From NCBI GenBank assembly GCA_043811375.1, contig JBDRNJ010000027.1, positions 15,539 through 79,538 of the forward strand: a stretch of 64,000 nt of DNA, read 5' to 3'. Of the stretch, positions 2,920 through 24,540 are shown piece by piece. Source of the stretch: a bacterium (GTDB lineage Bacteria; Zixibacteria; MSB-5A5; GN15; FEB-12). How positions within the stretch are numbered: the first letter of the stretch is position 1; every line of letters starts with the position of its first letter. The translations under genes and the position numbers were made by a program. Below the pieces are notes generated by a model. That model was not told where the DNA came from. It ran no database searches and saw nothing but the letters and a program-made list of their open reading frames with translations.

Positions 2920-3684
2920 CTACCTTGTCCGACCAGTGTGGGAATGTGCAACATCGGACAAGCCCAGCATTACTTTTTGTGTCAGGAGTTTCTTGGCAAA
3001 CCGGGCATCCCCTCCAGACTGTTCAGCTATCTCCTGAAGCTGTTTGGCGGTCGGCTTGGTCTTGTGATCAGATTTCTCCAGATCATGCTTTAAGAGCTGG
3101 ATGATTTCTTTCGTCGTATAAGGATTGAAGTTGACGAAGATCGGACTCAGGCGGGACCAGACTCTCGGCTCGATCCCGAGTTTCTGTGGTGTCTCATTGG
3201 AGATGGCTACAATCCAGAAGTTCCCCATCTCATGGAACTGGTACAACACTGCGTTGCGTTCTTTTGTGTCCAATCGGTCAATCCCGTCAATGATATAGAT
3301 GCACTGCTTCTTGTCCATGTGCTTCTTTATGCGTTCGATCTTAAACCGCGTATCCTGAAGCTCTGCCCTAAGAATGGAAAACTGGTCAACAATGTCGTTT
3401 ACGAGGGCATATAGGGAGTTTGAGTTCCAACAGTTGCTGCATGCGACAGAGGCCTGTCTGGTCTCAGCAAGCTCTGACGCGGCATACTGGGCGCAATGGG
3501 TTTTGCCGGCTCCCTGGGATCCCCAGATCCAGGTATGCAATGGTGTAGGATGTTTGCCTACATGTGAAAGTATCCGTTGGAGTGCAGTAAGCTCCCTCTG
3601 GCGTCCGACTGGTCGCTGGGGTTTTGGAATAGGCTTTTGCCATGAGGGTTCTCTAAGCTGCTCTTCAAGCTGTCTGTAGGCCAT
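2920..3684 (-). CDS. Orc1/Cdc6-like AAA+ ATPase without a C-terminal winged helix
   Basis: Walker A GSQGAGKT, SNCW, Walker B IIDGID, VAISN sensor 1, SRL arginine finger, FNPYT, GDAR sensor 2. Confidence 0.85.
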   Translation of the reverse strand: MAYRQLEEQLREPSWQKPIPKPQRPVGRQRELTALQRILSHVGKHPTPLHTWIWGSQGAGKTHCAQYAASELAETRQASVACSNCWNSNSLYALVNDIVDQFSILRAELQDTRFKIERIKKHMDKKQCIYIIDGIDRLDTKERNAVLYQFHEMGNFWIVAISNETPQKLGIEPRVWSRLSPIFVNFNPYTTKEIIQLLKHDLEKSDHKTKPTAKQLQEIAEQSGGDARFAKKLLTQKVMLGLSDVAHSHTGRTR

Positions 3685-3748: not shown

Positions 3749-5794
3749 TTATTGCTGGGCTAACCGGCTGGCGGATGTTAAGATGATTTTGCCGCGTTCC
3801 TTGTCTGGCAGTTGGAGAATTGCTCTGGCTATCCTTGCCTCCGCCGCCTTGGTCGTGGCCGCGATTATTCCGAGGTCGAACGGTGACATCTGCAGTTTTT
3901 TGACGGTCCTGTCAACATCACCTTTTCCGGTCTCAATTTCGACGACCCTTTTTGTCGATCCCTTCTGAATCACGATATCATATTGGTTGCCCGCATGCCG
4001 TACTTCCGTTGCCACGGTCCATCCCTGTTCCCGAAGCCGTGCTGCAATCCGGGCCTTCCAGTATTCGTGGTCAAGACCGCCTTCCAGTGGCGATTGGGGA
4101 GCTTGTTGCCTTCCCAGAACCGGATATCCAGCGGGAGTAAGTTGCAGTAGGGCCACCCTACCCTTTGACGTTGAGACTTCAGTCTGGGTGATAAGTCCTG
4201 CTTGTCGCAGGATTTCCTTGGTCTTGTCTCCCATATAGGCAGATAGACTCAGCTGTCGATATCGTTCAACGACGCTTAAGTTCGGATAGTCAGCTATACT
4301 TTCTAAAAAGCTCATCTGTGTCTCAGTCAGTTGAGTCGGCGGTGAGGATTCAGGGTCATTCTGTGAAGATTCGGCCCCTTCTACTTGCCTCTGGCGAAGA
4401 ACCCGAATAGCTTCTTTCAGCATTTGCTGGCCATTATCAAACACTGTGGCAACCGAATAACTCCACATGAGGCCGCTGAGTGCTTTATCACTGATTCTGA
4501 CGGCATTTCGTGATGATTCCGGCACCTGCGCAAGGAAAGCCTGGGGAACCCCGCTCAGCTTTACTATAGCTTCACCGGGATGCAATAACTTGAGGTATTC
4601 ACGGTCCTCCCCGTGAAGCCCAATGCTGTCGCAGATTGATCTGATATCTGCCTCGTTGTGCATGTTGAAGACGAAATGGGTGTTAAGATTCGCCAGGGCA
4701 CTGTTGGTCAGGCTGGAGGGCTGTTGATCGATGATGACAAAGCCCTCGCCTAGTTCTCTCACCTGTCTAAGTATGCCATCCATAAGAGATTCCCTGTCTT
4801 CCAGGGCTTGCTTCTGCCGTGTCAGGATGTTATGAGCTTCCTCGATGAGGAAGACATGTTCCAGTGGCTTTCGGTGACCTTGGTTCAGCCTGGCGAAGTA
4901 GGTCCAGAGGCAGAGAGCTTCGGTGAAGAACGTTTTCTCGCTGTCGGTCAGACTTTCCAAACCATACACGACCGGGACGTTTAACAATGGTCCGATTGAG
5001 AATGGAGTATTGAAGACTCGGCTGATACCACCGAACGAAAGCGCACCCAGAGCTCTTTTGGCGCTGTCAATCCACATAGCTTCACGGCCGTAGGCTTTCT
5101 TTTTTTCTATATGTGTGAGCGCCTCCTGGAAAGTAGGATACGCACACTGCGAATCCTCTCCTGCGTCGCCTGCGAGGTCGAAAAACGTCTGCTGCAGAAT
5201 CCGCTCCACCCCATGTCCGAGAAACAAAGCGTGTTTCATGGCTTCGATGAGAAGCTTCAGCCAGTCCTCCCAATCCGTGTTTGGAGGTGGCAGCAGCGGG
5301 TTCCAGTAAAACGGTGATACTTGACTCCCGACAGTGAAATACAGCACAAGCGGGTCTGTTCGAGTCTTCAAGAGCGACCGGAAATTCTGCTTCCAGTCAA
5401 AAAGTGTGAACGGAATCCTGTTTTCAAGCAACTGGTCGACCAGGATGTGGACCAGATTGGTCTTGCCCGAGCCGGTCGTGCCCCAAATGCCCATATGCCT
5501 GGTCAGTTGCTTCTGCGTGATCTGAACCGACCCATAGGGAGAATCGCGATACTTGATTGTTCCCAGTGTGAGTTCTCCGGTAGGTGTCTCAGAAGGAGGC
5601 CGCAGAATAACATCAGGTTCGGCCAAATCCGGTCGGCAGTACCTCTGATAAAGCAGGTCGATTACACCGCCGGCCTGGAGACGGTCTTTGACAGAGCTTC
5701 CCTGGTGGAATGCAGCCATTAGGCCATTGACCTGGCTGCCCAAAAGCGGTTCCAGTTTATCGAGTTTCTTGAGGTATACCTTTTCATCGGTCAT
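3749..5794 (-). CDS. HerA/FtsK/VirB4-like (DUF87-type) ATPase fused to winged helix and PD-(D/E)XK nuclease-like domain
   Basis: HMGIWGTTGSGKT, FDWK, LIEEAH, IDQQPS; C-terminal wHTH then H..W...E...D...EIET. Start placed at MTDEK. Confidence 0.85.
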   Translation of the reverse strand: MTDEKVYLKKLDKLEPLLGSQVNGLMAAFHQGSSVKDRLQAGGVIDLLYQRYCRPDLAEPDVILRPPSETPTGELTLGTIKYRDSPYGSVQITQKQLTRHMGIWGTTGSGKTNLVHILVDQLLENRIPFTLFDWKQNFRSLLKTRTDPLVLYFTVGSQVSPFYWNPLLPPPNTDWEDWLKLLIEAMKHALFLGHGVERILQQTFFDLAGDAGEDSQCAYPTFQEALTHIEKKKAYGREAMWIDSAKRALGALSFGGISRVFNTPFSIGPLLNVPVVYGLESLTDSEKTFFTEALCLWTYFARLNQGHRKPLEHVFLIEEAHNILTRQKQALEDRESLMDGILRQVRELGEGFVIIDQQPSSLTNSALANLNTHFVFNMHNEADIRSICDSIGLHGEDREYLKLLHPGEAIVKLSGVPQAFLAQVPESSRNAVRISDKALSGLMWSYSVATVFDNGQQMLKEAIRVLRQRQVEGAESSQNDPESSPPTQLTETQMSFLESIADYPNLSVVERYRQLSLSAYMGDKTKEILRQAGLITQTEVSTSKGRVALLQLTPAGYPVLGRQQAPQSPLEGGLDHEYWKARIAARLREQGWTVATEVRHAGNQYDIVIQKGSTKRVVEIETGKGDVDRTVKKLQMSPFDLGIIAATTKAAEARIARAILQLPDKERGKIILTSASRLAQQ

Positions 5795-5885
5795 AGACAA
5801 TTCCTGCTGCGCTGAACTGGTTACACAGACATACATCCGTAAGTGAGTGTGGCTGACGTGATATGCCTGATCGTAACTAACAATC

Positions 5886-6314
5886 TCACTTGAGACTTCT
5901 GCTGTTCTTTTTGGAGGAATTATTCTTTGCCTGCTGTTCCGCTCCCCTGACGGCTTCGAAAAGATCTCTGATGTCCCTGATGTCCCTCCTCAGGGTTTGA
6001 ACATCCCTCCAGAAGTTGACTTTTTGTTCTCTGGTTTCTTTGCGAATACGGCACAGCCGCTCTTCCAACTCTAAGCGGCGCTTCTCGATGATTGGATCCA
6101 CTCCAAGGGTCCATTTTGTCAGGTCATCTAGTGTGATTATGGTAGCCCGACCTTCCTCGCGTAGCGAGTCGACGCATTCTTTTTCGATACGATGCCGTTC
6201 CTTTACCTCTTTCAAGAGTTCGTCCATCTTGGTTCTTATTCTGGCTGCCACCAGGTTCTTGATTTCAGGTTCTGGGCTCCTTTGATTGGAGTTTTTTCGG
6301 GGCATAGGAATCAC
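5886..6314 (-). CDS. Coiled-coil hypothetical protein upstream of the ATPase
   Basis: Charged helical protein with FWRD motif, co-oriented with the ATPase, diverged partial homolog at 7289-7429. Confidence 0.75.
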   Translation of the reverse strand: MIPMPRKNSNQRSPEPEIKNLVAARIRTKMDELLKEVKERHRIEKECVDSLREEGRATIITLDDLTKWTLGVDPIIEKRRLELEERLCRIRKETREQKVNFWRDVQTLRRDIRDIRDLFEAVRGAEQQAKNNSSKKNSRSLK

Positions 6315-12162: not shown

Positions 12163-12318
12163 ATGAGAGAGACGACTGAAGAATACGATGACGAATCCCA
12201 CGAATTTGCTGTGTGCGGTTTGTGTGACAACGAGTTCGTTCCCTGTGGAAACCGGCAGTGCTGGGGCAATGATTATTGCCCCGATTGTATAGAACCTAAG
12301 GAGTTGGTGAGAAAATGA
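12163..12318 (+). CDS. 51-aa zinc-finger microprotein, missing from the ORF track
   Basis: GAGGTGA RBS; MRETTEEYDDESHEFAVCGLCDNEFVPCGNRQCWGNDYCPDCIEPKELVRK; ATGA overlap with next gene. Confidence 0.7.
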   Translation: MRETTEEYDDESHEFAVCGLCDNEFVPCGNRQCWGNDYCPDCIEPKELVRK

Positions 12319-12605
12319 CCATGGGGAGAATAATCCGCAACGGTGACGGCTTCGAGTTTGTCGAGTTGGACGAGCTTGAGCAGGACGAGATTATCAGGTG
12401 TGCAATCGACAGGAACCTAAACCTCTACACGCGTGTGGAAAAGTCTGTTCAGGAGCATTTGTTGGCAACTCATATGCATGATCCCAGCGACTTGCAGAGG
12501 CAATTAGCTCTGGCCATCTTTGAAGTAGTGGCAGTTAGAGCAAATGTGCTGCTGAGAAGTGAGCTCAGCCGCAAGATACATTGGACAAAAGAAGGTCAAG
12601 GATAG
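12315..12605 (+). CDS. Small helical hypothetical protein
   Basis: 96 aa, translationally coupled to the microprotein. Confidence 0.7.
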   Translation: MTMGRIIRNGDGFEFVELDELEQDEIIRCAIDRNLNLYTRVEKSVQEHLLATHMHDPSDLQRQLALAIFEVVAVRANVLLRSELSRKIHWTKEGQG

Positions 12606-12869: not shown

Positions 12870-15002
12870 ATGGGACGGGTACTACTAAGTGCACCTGTAG
12901 CCGACATTGCTGATGAGCTCAAGCGATTTGCACACGCTGAGGAACTTTCATTCCGGAAAGTTGACAGCTCTCTTGATTGTTCGGCCCTTGATTACGTCGG
13001 GGAGCATCCGAAGCATCCCAGCGACAGCTGGATTCGATGGGAATTACGGGAACAGGCGAATGGCGTTGTTCTAAATGTTGACGTGGGTATACTTCGGGGT
13101 GCGCTGAGATTCACAGGCGTAATTCTGCTCCTTGGTATGGGCGGTCTTTGTGTGGTTTTCCTAATGCTCTCCGGTCTTGTCCCTATTGCCTTTCAGTCTC
13201 GCCTGGGACGGCTGCTAGTCATCGGATCGCTGTGCACTGCTGCTGTTGCTGGTCCATTTGTATTGTTTCTTACGCACCGTGCACGTCGGGCTGAGTGGGA
13301 TTTCTTCTCCCATCTTGAGAAATCATTCAGTTTCCGGATCTTGGAGCCAGTTGAAGGCAAAGTGTTTGGAAGAAATACGGATGCATTGCTGTTCATGCCA
13401 GCTTCATTGGTTCTGGTCGTTTGCTTCAGTCTCTTTGTTCCTCTTGTGGGAGTGCCTTTTCTTTTGATTGCTGGGTCAATGATGCTGACCTACTTATGTA
13501 GGATTGTACTCCAGCGCGGTCAGATTTCGAGTTGGAGGGCAGATATTGCAACTAACTACTTTGAGTGGACGATACCCGTGGCAACGGCGGTAGCTTGCCT
13601 GGTGCTTGTCTGTGGCTCGCCGCTGGCTCTGGAAGTCTATGTTCAGAACTACGATGAAGAATCCACCCCACTTGGCTATCTTCGGGTTAGACGAGATCCG
13701 CTACTGCTATTCGAGCGAAGAGATGAAGATCCTGTTGAACTGAAGGCGACATGGACACAGAGGGTGGTCAGCTCGATAACAGAAGCGCCAGTGAATACCG
13801 AACCGTTGTCAGTGAACGGGCAACCGCGAAGCGGCACATCTGAGAGAAAGTTGACAGGGGAAGCCTTGCGAAAGATGGCCAGGGACATCAGGCGGCTCAT
13901 TGGTGACATGTCAGATACAAATGTGTGGATTGTGATCCTGCTCATGGGCCTTACCCTAGCCAAGGTCATTCATCTGGGAGGCAAGTGGAGACACGTATTT
14001 GTGTCCGGTACGAAGTCTCCAGGTCGCATAGGGGAGCTCTATATAGAAGATGTAAAGCTTAAGGGCCTAAGCCGGTCTTTACTGGTGACGTCAAGCGCGC
14101 TGGCAATGCTGTGTGGACTGGCCCATGGCGTTCTTATCATACAGTTGGTCGCCTACGTTTTTGGCGTGCAGTTCCTTTTGATTGATGAAGTCCATGTACT
14201 ATTTGCTCGTGTCGACGCGATGCGCATGGCTGGCCTTGAAGGTGCCAGTTTGCAATCCCAGGTCTCAAACCACACGTTGTGGTTGTGCGCGCTGACTGCT
14301 TGGTCGTTACCAACTGCCTTGATTGCAGCGAATCGGCTTATTAGAAGGCTTCGGCGTATTTACTTCAGCACCAAGCGACGGTTGCACTCATCTTGCGAGA
14401 TAGATTTACCATTCTGGCTGGGGCAAGGCATCCGCAAATGGTCGGCTGCGATTGGTGTAACTACACCGAAACTCGTAATCACAGATTCCAGAGACGTTAG
14501 AGTGCACTCGGAGTGGCGCTTGTTCCAGGGAAGCGGAGCCGTAGTCGTGACACAAGGAGCATTGACTGTACTGCGGCGGGGCGAAATGAAGGCAATTGTG
14601 TGCCACGAATTAGGACACCTGCAGCGAGATTGTCGACGCATCTCCTTGCTTACGCTGTTCTGTAGAGTGACGCTCGTGCCTTATGGCTTTGCAACACTGT
14701 TTTACGATTTCGAACGTGCAGAGGTACTAGCGGATGAAGTGGCAGTAACTGCTTGCGGTAGCAAGAGGCAACTGATTTCGGGATTGGCTAAACTTTCCAT
14801 GGTAATGCGGGTGAATCGGGAGTCTCAAAGCAGGTTTAAGGGGAGTGAATCGTGGAGCCCGTCCCTCTGGATGCGGACGGGATGGCAACAACTCAGAGTC
14901 TTGTATGATTTGTATCTGGGAGAAGAAATGGTCGGCTATTCTTATCCAACTTTTGTTGCTCGACTGAATCGCTTGCGGGTAAGTCAGGGCGAAAATACCT
15001 GA
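12870..15002 (+). CDS. Polytopic membrane protein with C-terminal M48/M56-type zinc peptidase
   Basis: Many TM helices; VVTQGAL, AIVCHELGH, EVLADE, YPT..ARL. Confidence 0.85.
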   Translation: MGRVLLSAPVADIADELKRFAHAEELSFRKVDSSLDCSALDYVGEHPKHPSDSWIRWELREQANGVVLNVDVGILRGALRFTGVILLLGMGGLCVVFLMLSGLVPIAFQSRLGRLLVIGSLCTAAVAGPFVLFLTHRARRAEWDFFSHLEKSFSFRILEPVEGKVFGRNTDALLFMPASLVLVVCFSLFVPLVGVPFLLIAGSMMLTYLCRIVLQRGQISSWRADIATNYFEWTIPVATAVACLVLVCGSPLALEVYVQNYDEESTPLGYLRVRRDPLLLFERRDEDPVELKATWTQRVVSSITEAPVNTEPLSVNGQPRSGTSERKLTGEALRKMARDIRRLIGDMSDTNVWIVILLMGLTLAKVIHLGGKWRHVFVSGTKSPGRIGELYIEDVKLKGLSRSLLVTSSALAMLCGLAHGVLIIQLVAYVFGVQFLLIDEVHVLFARVDAMRMAGLEGASLQSQVSNHTLWLCALTAWSLPTALIAANRLIRRLRRIYFSTKRRLHSSCEIDLPFWLGQGIRKWSAAIGVTTPKLVITDSRDVRVHSEWRLFQGSGAVVVTQGALTVLRRGEMKAIVCHELGHLQRDCRRISLLTLFCRVTLVPYGFATLFYDFERAEVLADEVAVTACGSKRQLISGLAKLSMVMRVNRESQSRFKGSESWSPSLWMRTGWQQLRVLYDLYLGEEMVGYSYPTFVARLNRLRVSQGENT

Positions 15003-16763: not shown

Positions 16764-17321
16764 ATGCCAAATGAATTGAAGGTCTTGGTCCTTATAGACC
16801 AGGCGAATCTGCACGGGCAGGCCACTTCACTTAACAAGCGGTTCAACATAGTGAAACTCTATGAGCGCCTCCTCGGGTCTGAGAACGGTGTCGGCCGAGG
16901 CGATTGCATCGTGTATGCGCCGGTGCTGCCGGGGAATCCGGACGGTTCACATGGGAACCACGACTGGCTCAGGCATTCAGGGTTGCAGGTGGTAAGCAAG
17001 CGAGCGAAGCGCCTTCCTGATGGTACCGTGAAGTGTGATATGGACGTGATCCTTGCACTGGACGCAATGGAACTGGCTCGGGAGGCAAAGCCGGATGTCA
17101 TCATCTTGGCGTCGGGCGACGGCGATTTCTCTCCGCTGGCGATCAGGCTCCGGAGAATGGGAATAAGGGTCGAAGCGGCAAGCTGCAAAGGAAGCTTGGC
17201 AGGTGAACTCCGCGCAGCTTGTCAGCGTGTCATCGAACTGGACGAGTTTTTCTCAAAGCCTGAGAAGATGGATGAAAGCGCGGTCATCACTGCGGTTCCT
17301 AGTGTTCAGGATGTCGCATAG
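16764..17321 (+). CDS. NYN domain (LabA/DUF88, PIN-like) ribonuclease
   Basis: LIDQANL, KCDMDV.LALDA, ASGDGDF, GIRVE; AAGGAGG RBS. Confidence 0.92.
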   Translation: MPNELKVLVLIDQANLHGQATSLNKRFNIVKLYERLLGSENGVGRGDCIVYAPVLPGNPDGSHGNHDWLRHSGLQVVSKRAKRLPDGTVKCDMDVILALDAMELAREAKPDVIILASGDGDFSPLAIRLRRMGIRVEAASCKGSLAGELRAACQRVIELDEFFSKPEKMDESAVITAVPSVQDVA

Positions 17322-17349
17322 GACAATGAAACGATAGGAGGAAAAAACC

Positions 17350-18219
17350 ATGAATAGGCTTCAGATTCGGAGAATGAGGAACAGGCTGGATCAGCTTCAC
17401 GATCCTCGCCGTCTGAGGGCAGAGCTGCTTCGCTGTCGGAAGATTGCCTGGTTGGACAGGTCCAAGCTTCGTGGTGAGGAAATCAATGTAGTCAGGCAGT
17501 TCCGGAAGCAATACGGGCGATGGTTCGGGGACGAGGGGATGCCAAGGTTTCCTTCCGACGAATGGAGCGCAAAGCTGAAAGGAAAGTCAATGAAGATTGG
17601 TGGCTGGGTTGGTCTTGCGCTTGAGAGTGGTATAGCAGCGCTTGTCTCTCCCGGCGTTCTAGCAATGCCACCTGTAAGGGCGGCCGTGGTCGGAGTAGGT
17701 GTCACCTTGGCGTTCGCAATCATGGTTAAAAAGGGGCTCTTGGCCGTGGGCTATGATGAGGATGACCCGATCCGAAGCCGGAACAGGCTAGCATGGCTCG
17801 GTTCGATCGTCTTGGGGATCAGCCTTTTGATGCTTGTCCCCTTCTTCCTGGGCAGAGCGAGCGCTGAAGTTGGGAGCCTGGCAGGCTGGGCGCTGGGCAT
17901 CCTCGGCGTCTCACTCCCTGTTACCGCCGCAGGCTTGCTGGCAGCCGGTGAGCTGACGTCTTGGCCCCAGCAGCTAACTAGGCAATTCAGGTCAATCCGC
18001 GCCAGGAGAGCGCGGGTAGAGGCCTTTCTGCTTGAAGTGAACATCAAACTGGAGGATTTGAAATGCAGAGCAAAGCACTCACACTGGCGGCCGCGCAGGG
18101 GATATTGGCAACGCTCTTCATCGCGTCATGCATGGAGCAAGAACCAATTCGGCAACAACGGGAACAGGAAGCGAGCTTCGAACGGTTCCAGGTTTTCGTC
18201 GATACGTCGGGCAGTCTAG
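17350..18219 (+). CDS. Four-TM membrane protein with basic helical ends
   Basis: Four hydrophobic segments, AGGAGG RBS; tail overlaps the next gene. Confidence 0.75.
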   Translation: MNRLQIRRMRNRLDQLHDPRRLRAELLRCRKIAWLDRSKLRGEEINVVRQFRKQYGRWFGDEGMPRFPSDEWSAKLKGKSMKIGGWVGLALESGIAALVSPGVLAMPPVRAAVVGVGVTLAFAIMVKKGLLAVGYDEDDPIRSRNRLAWLGSIVLGISLLMLVPFFLGRASAEVGSLAGWALGILGVSLPVTAAGLLAAGELTSWPQQLTRQFRSIRARRARVEAFLLEVNIKLEDLKCRAKHSHWRPRRGYWQRSSSRHAWSKNQFGNNGNRKRASNGSRFSSIRRAV

Positions 18220-18929
18220 ATGAGCAGGAATACCGCACCGTGATAAACTCCGTTTGCGCCTCGCTGGATACGTTGGTGGAATTATTCAGCACTCGGTATC
18301 TATCGGTGATACCGTTTTCGGCGGGGCCGGATCTTTGGAGCGGTTCGCACGTGACGGCAGTCCTGCCGGAACCACCTCTGGTAGAGGTGAGAGCTGACGT
18401 TCAAAACGAAGCTGCGCTTCTGTTCAAGAAGTACCAAGCCAAGCTCCAAAAGGAGGCTGATAAGGAACAGAAGCAAGCGCGGCTTGCTGCTCGAGGTGCT
18501 TATATGAGTGCCGTCGGGGACTCAATTGCGCCTGTCTTGATGTTCCTCTCTGGCCTCCTTCAGGGCGACGCCGAGTGCACCTCGTTGAACGACCTCGCGG
18601 TGCGTTGCGGTTCTGACGGGAGCAACACCTTATCACTTGTCATCACCGACGGCGTGGACGATTGCGGTGCATTGTCGCGCGAATCAGTGGAGAAGCCTGA
18701 GGGCAATTCAGTAACGGTGGTTTTCCTGGTGCCTACGAAACGTGATAGGCAAAAGCACGGGGAGTACGGTGAGCTACTGAAGGCACGGAGTGAAGCCCTG
18801 AAGGTGCTTCTTCCATCGGCGATAATCCTTCCCGGATACATGAGTTCCCGCCTCGATTCATGGCTGAGCGAGATAGTGCAGAAGAGAAAGGGCACGGTTG
18901 GCTCGGATTGGGAGGACCTTGATGGCTAA
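18063..18929 (+). CDS. vWA-domain lipoprotein
   Basis: Lipobox FIASC, MIDAS DTSGS, T, VITDG; coiled insert; GGAGG RBS. Confidence 0.85.
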   Translation: MQSKALTLAAAQGILATLFIASCMEQEPIRQQREQEASFERFQVFVDTSGSLDEQEYRTVINSVCASLDTLVELFSTRYLSVIPFSAGPDLWSGSHVTAVLPEPPLVEVRADVQNEAALLFKKYQAKLQKEADKEQKQARLAARGAYMSAVGDSIAPVLMFLSGLLQGDAECTSLNDLAVRCGSDGSNTLSLVITDGVDDCGALSRESVEKPEGNSVTVVFLVPTKRDRQKHGEYGELLKARSEALKVLLPSAIILPGYMSSRLDSWLSEIVQKRKGTVGSDWEDLDG

Positions 18930-19182
18930 GCATTCATCCGGCAACCAGTTGGATCTGTTTGACAGCTTGAATAGCGAGGTTGCGAGGTCTGCGGACCTGG
19001 ACGCTGAGGAGATATCTCGGCAAGAGAGGCATCAGCCCGGGGATGGGCAAACAGTATCAACGACGGAAGCCACGATAAAGGAGGATGTGTGCGCGTGTCA
19101 TCAGTGCGGAAAGCACCGTGCTGGCGCAGACGATGAAGTGGAAGAGCTTGTCACAGCACTTTATGGCCCAGGAAATACGTGA
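18922..19182 (+). CDS. Small hypothetical protein (QLDLF motif, CxCxxC)
   Basis: GGAGG RBS, overlaps vWA stop. Confidence 0.6.
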   Translation: MAKHSSGNQLDLFDSLNSEVARSADLDAEEISRQERHQPGDGQTVSTTEATIKEDVCACHQCGKHRAGADDEVEELVTALYGPGNT

Positions 19183-19240
19183 GAGTGTTGAGTTGAACTC
19201 TCCAGTTAGGCGAGAACGGAAGATAGATGGAGGAACTGAC

Positions 19241-19630
19241 ATGGATAAAAAGAGCAAACCGGATGACGACGCCCTTGAACTGAAACGGGACGTTAGCAGG
19301 GAGCGGATAGGCCGTGACGTTGCTGAGACCGGACAGGTCAAGCAGGTGGTGAAGCGGGAGTTTGAGTTCGACGGCGTGCTTGGCAGCGAGACAATAATCG
19401 AATACGCTCAGCTTTACTGCGGTCACTTGTCGCCGGCTAGTGCTGGTGGCCTCTGTGTCTGCGGGCGAAGTTACTGTCGGGCGTGCCTGGAGTCTGCAGG
19501 AGCCAATTGCAGCGTTTGCGGCAGGCTGATCGGACCCTGCTGCGTTTCTCGATCGTGCCTGGATCAGGACCGCGTGTACTGCAAGCAGTGTCGGTTTTTT
19601 GGCTGGTTAGCTTGGCTATTTGGAGGATGA
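19241..19630 (+). CDS. Cys-rich zinc-finger protein with hydrophobic tail
   Basis: CVC, CRAC, CSVC, CC, CKQC; GGAGG RBS. Confidence 0.75.
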   Translation: MDKKSKPDDDALELKRDVSRERIGRDVAETGQVKQVVKREFEFDGVLGSETIIEYAQLYCGHLSPASAGGLCVCGRSYCRACLESAGANCSVCGRLIGPCCVSRSCLDQDRVYCKQCRFFGWLAWLFGG

Positions 19631-19635
19631 TTACA

Positions 19636-19857
19636 ATGGCTTGGATCTTACTTTTGCTCGGGCTCTTTTTCGTGTTCACCAGGATACTGCCCTCCCGAAA
19701 TGGGGCAGTTGTTACAGGGTTCCTCATGCCCGTAGTGTTTATCCTGTACTTGGCTACTGTCTCTCCCAACCTCGCGCGATTCGTTGCGATTATCATCGGC
19801 CCAATTCTCCTCGTGGCTTTTCTGAGGTTGAGGTCCAAAGGCCGGCGTGGGAAGTGA
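19636..19857 (+). CDS. Small 3-TM membrane protein
   Basis: 73 aa hydrophobic with basic tail; GGAGG RBS. Confidence 0.7.
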   Translation: MAWILLLLGLFFVFTRILPSRNGAVVTGFLMPVVFILYLATVSPNLARFVAIIIGPILLVAFLRLRSKGRRGK

Positions 19858-21178
19858 CAGTATAGGGTCCAAACTCATGTGGCGCGAACAGAGACAATTG
19901 CAGAGGTTGGTCAACCTGCTCGGAACATCTGAGCCTCGCGTGTCACGCCTGGAAAGGCTGGCGGCGCTGCATCCGGAGAAAGTCCCACAAGTCTTGAGGT
20001 CGCTGAGTCTCTTGGCAATCAGGCGAGGCCTTGACCCGACCAACATGCCTGCGTTTCCGGTCTGCCGGAATGCCTTGCCGGCTGATGGCGTGCACCTCGG
20101 AGAGCAGATGTTCGGCGAGCAACCCGTGGGCGAACTGCGGCTCGGTATTGAAGACATGCTTGGGTCACACGTTCTTGTCGCAGGGGTCACAGGCTGGGGT
20201 AAGACCTACCTGCTTATGTATATTCTCCAGCAGCTAGTCAAAATGGCATATCGCGTATGCGTCTTTGATAGCGAGTCCGAATACTGGAAGTTTGCGGAAA
20301 GAGCTGGGCTGGATCAATGCTGGTTTGTCCATCTCGAAGACGACAAGGACAACCCGCTCCAGCAACCGCCCAATGTCCCGGTAGGCAAGTGGTTCGCCGC
20401 CTGGAAACGCAGCGTGCGCGAGGTCATGTGGTGCCGGGAAGGCATGATCAATCTGCTCACCCTATGCATTGGCAACCTACTGAAGAATACAAAAGGACAG
20501 AAGCCAGAAAGGTCCCCCACCATCTCCAATCTTTACTCCCTGTTGAACAACATGAGGTTCCAGCCTGGAACCAGACGCGCTGGTTATCACGAATCGCTCT
20601 TAGACAGGGTGCAGTCGCTCCTGGACAACCTTGGCCCGATGGTGGATTGTGAGTCAGGATATCCACTGGAAGACCTTGCACGGAAAAGCCTCGTCTATGA
20701 CATTTCATCACTCAGCCAGGAAGCGCAGTTATTCGTCCTGCACCTTAAGCTCCTGAAGATGCAGCTCTATCGTGAGGCCCAACTGGAAGAGGCTGGGAAA
20801 GAGGCTGCTGCTACAGGCTCCGACGTTTTCGTTGTGGAGGAAGCTCACCGAGCAACGGCCAAGGTACTGGAGAAAAGGCCTGACCTCGGAGAGCCGCTGC
20901 TTTACGACTTGGTGAGGACGGGAAGAAAGCGCGGCGCCAAGTTCGTATTCGTCGAACAAGTGATAGCCGGAATCCCATACCAGATTCTTGGCAACATCAA
21001 CTGCAGGATCATAGGGAGAATCTCTGACGGCCGCTCTTTGATCGCACTCGCGCAGATAACGGGGTGGGACGACGATCAGCTGGATTTCATTCGGGAACTC
21101 CCGCCCAGACATTTTGTCATCCAGACGCCGCTAATACCTGATGGGGCCGTGTTCAAGGTACCGGATTTGAGTGAATGA
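19847..21178 (+). CDS. HerA/FtsK/VirB4-like ATPase
   Basis: HVLVAGVTGWGKT, VFDSESEY, VVEEAH, GRKRG, FVEQ, LGNIN. Confidence 0.88.
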   Translation: MGSDSIGSKLMWREQRQLQRLVNLLGTSEPRVSRLERLAALHPEKVPQVLRSLSLLAIRRGLDPTNMPAFPVCRNALPADGVHLGEQMFGEQPVGELRLGIEDMLGSHVLVAGVTGWGKTYLLMYILQQLVKMAYRVCVFDSESEYWKFAERAGLDQCWFVHLEDDKDNPLQQPPNVPVGKWFAAWKRSVREVMWCREGMINLLTLCIGNLLKNTKGQKPERSPTISNLYSLLNNMRFQPGTRRAGYHESLLDRVQSLLDNLGPMVDCESGYPLEDLARKSLVYDISSLSQEAQLFVLHLKLLKMQLYREAQLEEAGKEAAATGSDVFVVEEAHRATAKVLEKRPDLGEPLLYDLVRTGRKRGAKFVFVEQVIAGIPYQILGNINCRIIGRISDGRSLIALAQITGWDDDQLDFIRELPPRHFVIQTPLIPDGAVFKVPDLSE

Positions 21179-21924
21179 GTATGGATAAACAGGAATTGAG
21201 AAAACGCATGCGCGAAATCCTGGCGGAACTGGATTGGAGGGGTGCTGGAAAGGGCGGAAGTGAGGAACCAGAGACCCTGGAGGTTGCCGGAACCTCGGGA
21301 GGAGCAAATCGCTGGGTGACTGTCCGGGATGCGCATAAGAAGGTCTTGGCCAGCGTGGCGAAAAATCCCTTCTACTCGATCACTGAGCACACAGAGGCAA
21401 TCGGGAACATAAGCGCCTGGGTTATGGCCAGAGTGATTGAAGAACTGACAAAGATAGGCTTTCTGGGAGAACCTCTGCCACTCTCGCTTGGCAAACGCGG
21501 AAGCCCGAGGCGGTATCTCAAGATCACACCCAGAGGTGCAAAGCATATCGGTGTAAAATTCGAAGACTGCCGGATACCTGGCAAGGGGTCTTTCGAACAC
21601 TGTCTATACCAAGACATCGTTTACCGCTTTCTTAGAGCCAAAGGCCGGGCTGTCCTGATTGAGCAGACATATAACGGCAAGGCAGTGGATGTAGTGGAGC
21701 ACCTTGACGACGGCAAGGTCAGGGCATACGAGATCGAACTTAGAGCTATCGGGCATGTCGCTGACAATATACGTGGTGATCTAGACGCTGGGTGCATGGC
21801 GGTCATAGTGGTGACGCGGAACCGATCCGAAGAGAAGCGGATTTCCTTGGCAGTCTATGGCAGGCTTTCCGCCGAGATGCTGGAGCACGTCAGCTTCCGG
21901 ACGATTGGAGAGTTTGTTCAATGA
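21175..21924 (+). CDS. Winged helix plus PD-(D/E)XK nuclease-like protein
   Basis: Homologous to the C-terminus of 3749-5794; GSFEH, IEQ, VDVV, AYEIE; ATGA-coupled to the ATPase. Confidence 0.8.
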   Translation: MSMDKQELRKRMREILAELDWRGAGKGGSEEPETLEVAGTSGGANRWVTVRDAHKKVLASVAKNPFYSITEHTEAIGNISAWVMARVIEELTKIGFLGEPLPLSLGKRGSPRRYLKITPRGAKHIGVKFEDCRIPGKGSFEHCLYQDIVYRFLRAKGRAVLIEQTYNGKAVDVVEHLDDGKVRAYEIELRAIGHVADNIRGDLDAGCMAVIVVTRNRSEEKRISLAVYGRLSAEMLEHVSFRTIGEFVQ

Positions 21925-21952
21925 CCACAATCCACGGTAGGAGACCTTAGGC

Positions 21953-22522
21953 GTGGCACCAGGCTTTGGAAAGTATGGATGGAGAAGTGGCCTGCGCGGA
22001 TTGAGACAGAGTCGGTCCGGTCGCCTGGATTTGCGGCACATCCTTGAGCCACCGCTGCCGATGGGCGGGGACCCAAGCTTTGATTGCCCTGAGACAGGCG
22101 CCAGAGTGACCTATACCACATGTGACGAGTGTCCTTTGTACCAGCGGTGGGGGGACAGGGAGATCCGTATCTGCAGGCACAAATACGAGGAGTCTGAGGC
22201 ACTCGACAGGGAGAGCGAGAAGTGGCTTGAGAACACTCTGGAAGAAAACAGGCGGGTTGTGGAGAAGATGGGCGAGGACACGAGGCACAGCGAACATGAG
22301 TTCCAAGAGCACATGGAATACCTCGAATCCTTGAAAGAGGAGCAGGAAGAGCAACGCAAGAAGAGTCATGAAGAGTTCCATAGAGAACTGGATGAGTTGA
22401 CAGAGGCAGCTCTGAGGTCCCTGCTGGGCAGCACAGGCCGGTCCGACACATGGTCCGAGGATGATGACGAGCAGGACAGAGACTGCTGCGATGGCTATGA
22501 AGATGGTTTTGAAGAGCGCTGA
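21953..22522 (+). CDS. Cys-containing acidic coiled-coil protein
   Basis: CP..CDEC..C N-terminal half, very acidic C-terminus. Confidence 0.65.
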   Translation: MAPGFGKYGWRSGLRGLRQSRSGRLDLRHILEPPLPMGGDPSFDCPETGARVTYTTCDECPLYQRWGDREIRICRHKYEESEALDRESEKWLENTLEENRRVVEKMGEDTRHSEHEFQEHMEYLESLKEEQEEQRKKSHEEFHRELDELTEAALRSLLGSTGRSDTWSEDDDEQDRDCCDGYEDGFEER

Positions 22523-23030: not shown

Positions 23031-23264
23031 GTGCCACGTGACCTGTTGACGCCCCAGCAGCTTGCTGATGTGCTCGGTGTGAAACTTTCCACCATCTATT
23101 ACTGGAGCCACACGAGGTATATCCCAACAGTCAAAATGGGAAGGCTATTACGGTTTAGACGCAGTTCAATCGAGCGATGGCTTGAAAAGCGAGAGAAGCC
23201 TCCAGTCAACAGGAAACAGTTGGCCAGCTCGGCAATGAAATCGAACTCAGCAACATTGAAGTAA
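23031..23264 (+). CDS. Excisionase-like helix-turn-helix protein
   Basis: LLTPQQLADVLGVKLSTIYYW..IPTVKMGRLLRF. Confidence 0.9.
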   Translation: MPRDLLTPQQLADVLGVKLSTIYYWSHTRYIPTVKMGRLLRFRRSSIERWLEKREKPPVNRKQLASSAMKSNSATLK

Positions 23265-23309: not shown

Positions 23310-24359
23310 CTAGTCAGATTCACTCAAGTAATTCAAGTTTTCTACTGCTCTCCTATGAGCGTCCTGAGTTGTGTGAACATAGGTCATTGTCATGCGTATG
23401 TCTGAGTGTCCCAGAAGCTCCTTGACCACAGGCAGTGGCACACCTGAGTCAACTAAGAAGCTGCCGAATGTGTGTCGAAGAGAGTGAACAGATGTTAGAT
23501 TGGCAATTCCTGCACGTCTCGCAATCAGGATTAGTCGCTTTCTGATTTCACCGTGAAATGTTGGTCTACCTTCAAGGGTGAAAACGTACGGGTGCTCGTC
23601 GCCACGATTGACGCAAAGGGACCGTAGGACGTGCTTCAACTCGGGACTCATGGCAATATCTCTTTCACCTGTTTTCGGTTTCCAATCATCTTTGTGGCGA
23701 ATATAGATGACTTCTTTCTCAAAATCGACATCTTGCCAGGTCAGGTGCTCCAATTCACCGCGACGCATACCCGAGTGCAAGAATCCCAAGATCACTGACC
23801 TCATATCTGGGGGGCTCGCGTCCAGAAGGACTGACACTTCGTCCTTTGTCAGGATACGATGAGGCTTAGCGTCCATCACTCGTTGGAACCTAATGCCATC
23901 AGTCGGGTTCTTCTCGGCCAAATCCCACTTGATAGCATAATTGAAAATCGTCCTCAGAGTTTTGATTTCAAAATTCATACTCTTCGTCATTGGAGGTTGC
24001 GTGCCCGCGAGCCGAGATTGGCGGTACCTCTCTATGACTCCAAGATTGACTTGCGAACAGAGCCTTATTCTCGGTTCGGTAACGAGGAATTCTTGAAACC
24101 GGTCTATCACATTCTGATAACGCTGGCTGGAAGCACATGCCATGTTCATCTTGGCGAAACTGGCAAATTGGACGAACACGTCTGAGATTAGAGAATCGTT
24201 TCGGTCAAGGCCATACTCCCCACGCACAAGGCGTCCCTCGATGTCGGCTAGGACTTCAAGGGCCAGCCTCTTACTGGGTCCCACGATCTTGCGAACCCGA
24301 ATGCCTTTTCGGCAGACGTCGATCTGATAATTCTTCCCTATCTTCCGCAAGGAACCCAT
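23310..24359 (-). CDS. Tyrosine recombinase/integrase
   Basis: SGMRRGEL, KPKT, HSLRH, LLGH, Y catalytic set intact. Confidence 0.96.
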   Translation of the reverse strand: MGSLRKIGKNYQIDVCRKGIRVRKIVGPSKRLALEVLADIEGRLVRGEYGLDRNDSLISDVFVQFASFAKMNMACASSQRYQNVIDRFQEFLVTEPRIRLCSQVNLGVIERYRQSRLAGTQPPMTKSMNFEIKTLRTIFNYAIKWDLAEKNPTDGIRFQRVMDAKPHRILTKDEVSVLLDASPPDMRSVILGFLHSGMRRGELEHLTWQDVDFEKEVIYIRHKDDWKPKTGERDIAMSPELKHVLRSLCVNRGDEHPYVFTLEGRPTFHGEIRKRLILIARRAGIANLTSVHSLRHTFGSFLVDSGVPLPVVKELLGHSDIRMTMTYVHTTQDAHRRAVENLNYLSESD

Positions 24360-24466
24360 TACATCTCACGCTGTTTTCGTGTCAAATCCTTGTCAAAAAG
24401 ATACAAAAAGGTTGGCGTCGTGTCAATAACTTATTGGTAATTAAAGGGATAAAGTCAAAACAAATG

Positions 24467-24540
24467 CGGGGTTGACGAGACTCGAACTCGCGGCCTCCTG
24501 CGTGACAGGCAGGCGTTCTAACCAACTGAACTACAACCCC
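24467..24540 (-). tRNA. tRNA-Asp(GTC)
   Basis: Full cloverleaf GGGGTTG...CTGTCAC...GTTCGAG...CAACCCCG; CCA not encoded. Confidence 0.97.

Follow-up and report, generated by a model that had tools for sequence, protein, structure and literature searches.

A conserved Zn-finger, ATPase and nuclease core beside a tRNA-adjoining integrase, combined with an unnamed 4TM–vWA module, in a candidate mobile element

The locus described here lies in a 64,000-nucleotide stretch of bacterial DNA (the window; positions 15539-79538 of contig C27 of the source genome G000, which is 95% complete), and coordinates below are window positions unless another contig or locus is named. As the original prediction, made from the sequence alone, had stated, nine co-oriented open reading frames (ORFs; g1–g9) occupy 16764-22522 of the + strand and are followed by an excisionase-like gene (xis) and an integrase gene (int); tRNA-Asp/tRNA-Val come next. 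The locus is a composite of two modules: the conserved core of an apparently undescribed mobile element, consisting of g5, g6, g7 and g8, and an unnamed add-on, consisting of a membrane protein with four transmembrane (TM) segments (4TM; g2) and a von Willebrand factor A (vWA) protein (g3). Our tentatively favoured reading, to which we give a little under an even chance, is that the core is the backbone of a tRNA-integrated mobile element whose DNA export does not rely on a type IV secretion system (T4SS). Export of this kind is favoured because the core lies on the xis strand, beside an integrase and a tRNA, and has membrane partners, and because few genomes of the phylum (Zixibacteria) have VirB4. 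What is shown are the genes with their order and co-occurrence, the folds and the motifs, and from them we infer every functional step.

The core genes encode a multi-cysteine Zn-finger protein (g5, 19241..19630, +), a 73-residue protein with three TM segments (g6, 19636..19857, +), an ATPase of the HerA/FtsK superfamily (g7, 19847..21178, +) and a protein that combines a MarR-like winged helix with a PD-(D/E)xK nuclease domain (g8, 21175..21924, +). Thirty-four of 285 genomes of the phylum contain matches to a profile of the ATPase and nuclease (A6), and 34 further regions were fetched from the stronger of its 59 matches, the weakest being left out. The 29 readable core loci comprise 21 that were selected by their ATPase and have a g5 homologue, and eight that came from selection by g5 only. 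In each of the 21 ATPase-selected loci, the ATPase gene lies no more than 500 bp downstream of g5; the nuclease gene follows g5 in 20, the exception being a truncated locus. Since these 21 had been picked by the ATPase, selection by g5 served as the reverse test. The g5 profile has matches in 25/285 phylum genomes, and newly fetched loci picked by it have the ATPase gene directly downstream in eight of nine cases, with the nuclease gene as well in seven of those eight; the ninth is the weakest of the fetched matches (3e-6), and three other weak matches were not fetched afresh. The conserved synteny sought by the original prediction is that of the core, whose order is kept in the phylum, and not that of all nine genes, whose full order occurs in no other readable core locus.

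Genes for mobility and membrane proteins recur around this core. Among the 21 ATPase-selected loci, a co-oriented xis lies within 9 kb of the core in 14 and an integrase gene within 12 kb in 10, integrase and tRNA occur together in eight, and in several loci lacking xis or integrase the core is at the end of the contig or locus. A small gene for a TM protein is found beside the core in 15/21 loci, compared with 84/533 small ORFs overall (several positions per locus were tested); of the six loci without one, three have a g5 whose own tail is strongly hydrophobic. In the window this position is taken by g6, which has three hydrophobic segments and a 60% identical homologue in locus L006, and is likely the membrane anchor of the ATPase. 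Together with g2, which has four such segments, it accounts for the two membrane proteins originally predicted.

The g5 protein has 12 Cys and an amphipathic or hydrophobic C-terminus, and four Cys are invariant among the 21 aligned members of its family. Profile matches to RING, B-box and FYVE fingers are weak (best RNF4, 6e-5), and the Atlas gave leads under 0.9 only. We considered a role as E3 ligase but did not take it up, given the weakness of the RING matches and the retention of g5 where a ubiquitin module is absent. Three Cys-rich proteins had been claimed for the operon; g5 and g9 (6 Cys) fit this description and g4, with 3 Cys only, does not.

The predicted pump-type P-loop ATPase is g7, which matches DUF87 (2.8e-10), has no TM segment and retains the Walker A (GxTGxGKT) and Walker B (EE) motifs as well as the conserved Q and R. 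Judged from the sequence, its true start is probably 19877 (MWR), as in its closest homologues. A profile of the 39-member ATPase family gave PDB matches at 7.5e-31 to HerA (4d2i), 2e-10 to VirB4 (4ag5) and 2e-3 to TrwB. A DNA nuclease had also been proposed, and the structure model of g8 (predicted local distance difference test, pLDDT, 85.5) supports this assignment: it combines a predicted winged helix-turn-helix (wHTH; Z 11) with a predicted restriction-endonuclease fold (Z 9.9 to 1y88). Foldseek matches of g8 to EndoMS, Hjc and Card1 are weak. Across 35 nuclease domains, D172 and E186 (full-length g8 numbering) never vary, H142, E163 and N198 hardly do, and in many relatives the domain is fused to the ATPase. 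In the Atlas, g8 falls into unnamed clusters that include proteins recorded from Planctomycetota and archaea; one row, a borderline one, is for Replic_Relax. A complex prediction for g7 with g5 scored 0.00 and weighs neither way.

An ATPase paired with such a nuclease could alternatively belong to a mobilizable element (IME), in which g7 would be the coupling protein, g8 a MOBC/Replic_Relax-like relaxase, and a helper T4SS would be used. The compact order ATPase, nuclease, xis, int does match that of streptococcal IME_Class_8 (VirD4, MobC, xis, int), which likewise has no VirB4 in the accessible part of its description (PMC5357655), and Replic_Relax is described, in the available text, as a PD-(D/E)xK family fused to a helix-turn-helix (HTH; PMC3424549). 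Structure rows in the Atlas include Replic_Relax and TrwB_AAD fusions at a borderline TM-score of 0.50, and TrwB_AAD_bind is matched weakly by 22/39 ATPases at E≤1e-3. Moreover, g8 carries D-x13-E-x-E, which we take to resemble the MOBC signature. However, the second Glu of this motif is not conserved across the family, none of 35 nuclease domains matches PF13814 (Replic_Relax) at E≤0.1, and the ATPase profile is much nearer HerA than TrwB; g7, moreover, has no TM segment. The window has a tyrosine integrase, in contrast to the serine integrase given for IME_Class_8 in the accessible text (PMC5357655), and a helper T4SS would be rare in this phylum: VirB4 (PF03135, PF19044) is absent from G000 and was found in 3/285 phylum genomes, as against 34 for the ATPase–nuclease family and 25 for its Zn-finger partner. 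We regard an IME as unlikely. The lack of VirB4 in G000 also sets the locus apart from a canonical integrative and conjugative element (ICE) with a T4SS.

The integration context is that of a tRNA-targeting element. The int gene (23310..24359, -) encodes a tyrosine integrase (PF00589, 3e-29) and adjoins the 3′ end of tRNA-Asp (24466..24540, -), the likely integration site, an arrangement of the type found in the Thermus element ICETh1. The xis gene (23031..23264, +; PF12728, HTH_17, 5e-14) encodes an excisionase-like HTH protein and is co-oriented with the operon. Elsewhere in the genome, contig C32 carries the tRNA-Asp 3′ end in two copies of 28 bp (C32:1499-1526 and 17850-17877), and a recombinase-like ORF overlaps one of them with its end. 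A second tRNA-Asp, on C28, is also occupied, so the copies on C32 are unassignable; a serine-recombinase-like gene abuts this tRNA-Asp (C28:1480-3094), which suggests a tandem array.

ICETh1 of Thermus thermophilus is the closest described counterpart. In the available part of its description (PMC5365140), it is tRNA-integrated, the donation of its DNA to competent cells (transjugation) depends on TdtA, its HerA-like, membrane-associated ATPase, and two nucleases are needed for efficient transfer. The window resembles it in tRNA integration, in the tyrosine recombinase and in having a HerA-like ATPase and a nuclease in one operon; the ICETh1 host has a competence channel, and G000 encodes ComEC. 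By analogy, the element, with g5–g9, xis and int as its backbone, would be excised by the integrase and its DNA cut by the winged-helix nuclease g8 and pumped out by the HerA-type ATPase g7, which g6 and g5 likely hold at the membrane; uptake through the competence machinery of a neighbour, as for ICETh1, is a guess. A variable slot of the same operon is filled by g1–g4, and in relatives Bub-like or TerY-P modules take the place of the 4TM–vWA pair. The presence of an ArdC-type gene in the same island also counts for this reading. A type IIG enzyme and a methylase, named in the accessible text on ICETh1 (PMC5365140), were not found in the window operon by Pfam, PADLOC or NCBIfam. Further differences are the wHTH-PD-(D/E)xK nuclease, which lies downstream of the ATPase or is fused to it, and the Zn-finger, small TM and xis genes included in the window-type core, here set against TdtA by description and not by sequence.

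The archaeal Ced system (CedD/CedB) also combines FtsK-HerA ATPases with small membrane proteins and moves DNA between cells, and CedD is the best NCBIfam match of a clade paralogous to g7 (4e-23 to 4e-27, under cut-off). Ced differs in importing chromosomal DNA, and xis/int are not described with it in the part of the source available (PMC11823120); g7 itself has no CedD match, and no CedA-like protein was recognised. The locus is best classed with HerA-driven integrative elements as a variant, and not as an ICETh1 member, a MOBC IME or a defence system already known. In keeping with the original impression of an unnamed system, it is not named by any model in PADLOC, Pfam or NCBIfam. All defence and conjugation models stayed under their cut-offs, and the literature reachable, which leaves out most subscription papers, yielded no account of these genes as a set. 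HerA-like helicases are listed among the common genes of archaeal dark-matter islands in the accessible text of PMC4158269. Were the core a DNA export device, the spread of the islands would be explained and TdtA-type transfer would reach well beyond Thermus.

Relatives show what can replace g1–g4. The two closest readable relatives, L006 and L007, carry a ubiquitin-like module in place of the 4TM and vWA genes (the JAB motif of L007, like that of L035, was identified by eye). Many such Bub-like loci encode a small protein with an invariant S-x-H, whose best PDB match, BubB, is weak (E 1.4); the S-x-H matches the catalytic S/H pair that the available text describes for type I Bub (PMC11601596). 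These relatives share with type I Bub the ThiF/E1 protein, the JAB motif and the small S-x-H protein, and differ from it, as far as the same text goes, in being co-transcribed with the core and xis; the window itself has no such module. The BubB-like S-x-H, JAB and E1 genes come straight after the nuclease gene in L040 (15023-17938), L041, L043, L024, L045, L028, L051, L055, L058 and L060, and several of these sets run directly into xis.

Other loci have vWA, PP2C and kinase genes in the same slot (L034, 3-2419; L057, 7981-10939), or PP2C and kinase genes (L063, 951-3150), sets that we take to be TerY-P-like; genes of this vWA/PP2C/kinase type also occupy the slot in L047 (1768-5587). In L008 (357-2973), a different pair of a TM protein and a vWA-like lipoprotein, with a 277-residue protein lacking a family match, comes directly before g5. 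Because the g2 and g3 profiles do not detect the L008 proteins, the pair was treated as a separate family. L025, L031, L033 and L049 have the core without any of these modules. Bub-like ubiquitination and TerY-P modules sit inside what would be a mobility operon, giving both a testable role. A wider possibility, that these loci represent an undescribed and widespread class of self-transmissible integrative elements that move DNA between cells by means of Zn-finger and small membrane proteins, a HerA-type pump and a winged-helix nuclease, with no T4SS, and in which the co-transcribed exchangeable module (4TM and vWA lipoprotein, Bub-like ubiquitination or TerY-P) picks the partner cell or gates transfer, is speculative and in our view rather doubtful.

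Several observations weigh against DNA export. No channel across two membranes and no outer-membrane route was identified, none of the nine genes is a NurA by Pfam, PADLOC or NCBIfam, and no second attachment (att) site was found on contig C27, which begins in an insertion sequence. All loci come from one phylum and hence are not independent, and in several relatives the ATPase gene is in pieces. The best NCBIfam match of g7 is HerA_antiphage (NF042943; 40.6 bits at 1e-10, where the cut-off is 800 bits), and the PDB entries matched best by the ATPase profile are of HerA type, several of them presumably anti-phage. Bub-like genes (ThiF/E1 and/or JAB-motif, same strand) occur in 14/29 core loci (11/21 plus 3/8) and TerY-P-like genes in at least three, in keeping with a defence setting.

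These last points favour an anti-phage HerA–nuclease system in which the contents of the variable slot (NYN, 4TM and vWA, Bub-like, TerY-P) would be sensors or effectors, a reading we hold to be as improbable as an IME. It draws further on weak PADLOC matches of g7 to mad8 and HerA (2e-13 to 4e-12), on the weakly RING-like character of g5 and on the co-transcription of ubiquitin-like and TerY-P modules in about half of the loci; an ATPase family closest to HerA, with a partner nuclease, is also what anti-phage HerA–nuclease and archaeal HerA–NurA systems have in common with the locus. However, curated cut-offs are far from reached, there is no Sir2, DUF4297 or NurA gene, and the core persists in the four loci without these modules. 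Its membrane partners and xis linkage set it apart from such systems, and a fixed place beside xis/int and on the xis strand is more characteristic of mobility genes.

The core might instead replicate or resolve the excised circle, as nickase and translocase, with no role in transfer. The available text of PMC3424549 connects Replic_Relax proteins with the replication of plasmids, the window operon has no other replication gene, and an AAA_22/Cdc6-like ATPase gene (2920-3684, -) follows the second ATPase–nuclease of the island. Membrane genes are nevertheless consistently beside the core, and separate primase genes beside it in L030 and L038 mean that it need not be the replicase; we judge this reading less probable again than the two just weighed.

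The second ATPase, fused to a wHTH-nuclease (3749..5836, -), is divergent: it is 21% identical to g7, matches DUF87 at 4e-11, has CedD as its best NCBIfam match (4e-23, far under cut-off) and falls into a separate clade, without g5, in a quick, midpoint-rooted ATPase tree from which split genes were left out. A 142-residue gene lies upstream of it, within 3749-6314 (-). Members of this clade occur near a g5 core in many islands, often without the nuclease and within a conserved seven-gene block. One complete genome, G148, has two identical nuclease-free ATPase genes (C1:25727 and 3082547), each beside a g5 core different from the other, and so points to recent movement.

The add-on module consists of g2 (17350..18219, +) and g3 (18063..18929, +), the last ~50 residues of g2 being encoded in overlap with g3. 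The N-terminal hydrophobic stretch of g3 ends in a lipobox-like IASC, and the protein has a long inserted helix (116-164). The vWA lipoprotein with a metal-ion-dependent adhesion site (MIDAS) of the original prediction was borne out in its fold and motif, export being predicted. A search with a vWA profile against 1.84 billion representatives returned 85 matches at E≤0.001, including the window's own, and a model built from 39 of them (pLDDT 87.6) matches integrin I and other vWA domains with Z 11-13; MIDAS-like columns are conserved (D 75/75, S 75/75, T 75/84, D 85/85). No Pfam, PADLOC or NCBIfam match was found for g2, nor any meaningful PDB match for its profile. In 28/85 matches, a g2-like N-terminus is fused to the vWA domain, and a profile of 23 such N-termini, from which g2 was left out, scores g2 at 3e-40; g2 and g3 are hence one module, fused or split. 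The pair makes up an unnamed family of its own, with 85 representatives at 50% identity and without a Pfam model, and is a self-contained membrane module that likely acts at the cell surface, perhaps in contact, exclusion or sensing.

Its distribution bears on the contact-dependent transfer apparatus that the original prediction made of all nine genes. The transfer role suggested there for the ATPase, the small membrane protein and the nuclease is also the leading reading here, but the nine do not make up a single obligate machine. The module occurs in four of 285 phylum genomes, the window's included, and in the other three (L013; L014 and L015, fused; L016) no core genes were found in the 8-30 kb read; conversely, 28/29 readable core loci lack g2 and g3, the window being the only one that carries them. 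A single contact-dependent machine with the vWA lipoprotein as adhesin, at least in this subgroup, is the least probable of the readings considered, the closest readable relatives having the ubiquitin-like module instead. Some observations do point towards it. L008 has its unrelated TM and vWA pair in the same slot, and exact coincidences of longest-contig size were found for three of 28 vWA matches looked up, namely the three best non-self matches, with close ATPase or nuclease homologues: P0008 with the ATPase-nuclease P0004 (121,026 bp), P0009 with P0002/P0097 (5,584 bp) and P0010 with P0098 (72,298 bp). The shared contig of 5.6 kb leaves little space for another arrangement. Sharing is deduced here from contig sizes, the contigs themselves being unread, and suggests that vWA with core is a recurring subtype. 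In a metagenome fragment (L054), g2 again precedes g3. A context search of genome and metagenome contigs gave no relatives for the ATPase, only the G113 locus for NYN and two short fragments for vWA; plasmid and phage collections yielded distant DUF87 ATPases only, with nothing for g8 or the 4TM–vWA fusion, and viral contigs no relatives of window genes.

The remaining genes of the operon are less widely distributed. The first, g1 (16764..17321, +), is an accessory-slot protein with an NYN (PIN-like) nuclease domain (PF01936, 3e-22), which upholds the PIN-like assignment, its role as RNase being predicted from sequence. A 57-60% identical homologue heads the same operon in L006, the only other locus with a close NYN in this slot; a more distant NYN lies 5 kb upstream in L045. 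This distribution lends little support to the alternative original proposal of a membrane-sensing conflict system whose effector is NYN. The 86-residue g4 (18922..19182, +) has one CxxC, a good ribosome-binding site and no homologue in any locus scanned. With a Cys-rich N-terminus and an acidic tail, g9 (21953..22522, +) has homologues in L006, L007 and L032, confined to the window's subgroup. Among the nine genes, Pfam cut-offs were reached by g1 (80 bits against 24.2) and g7 (DUF87) only, PADLOC gave partial ATPase and NYN matches only, and NCBIfam none at cut-off.

Strong ribosome-binding sites had been noted for most genes. GGAGG or AGGAGG precedes g1–g6 and AGGAG the GTG start of g9, as claimed; g7 and g8 instead overlap the preceding gene, g7 overlapping g6 and g8 the g7 stop, and g2 extends 157 nt into g3. 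The GC content of the operon is 0.553, compared with 0.536 for the genome and 0.486 for the island left of the operon. Scans for promoters, terminators and repeats did not rise above chance level, and an oriT-like site was not found. Left of the window on the same contig (L001:8204-13766) are an ArdC-type gene, a MoxR-like AAA ATPase gene and a vWA-like gene, and similar blocks occur in L037 and L038. Upstream of the operon, a 96-residue protein (12315-12605, +) is by eye similar to the product of an L032 gene located between nuclease and g9, and a 710-residue membrane protein (12870-15002, +) has an M48 peptidase-like C-terminus; a related architecture (M48/M56 and prenyltransferase) lies upstream of the core in L007.

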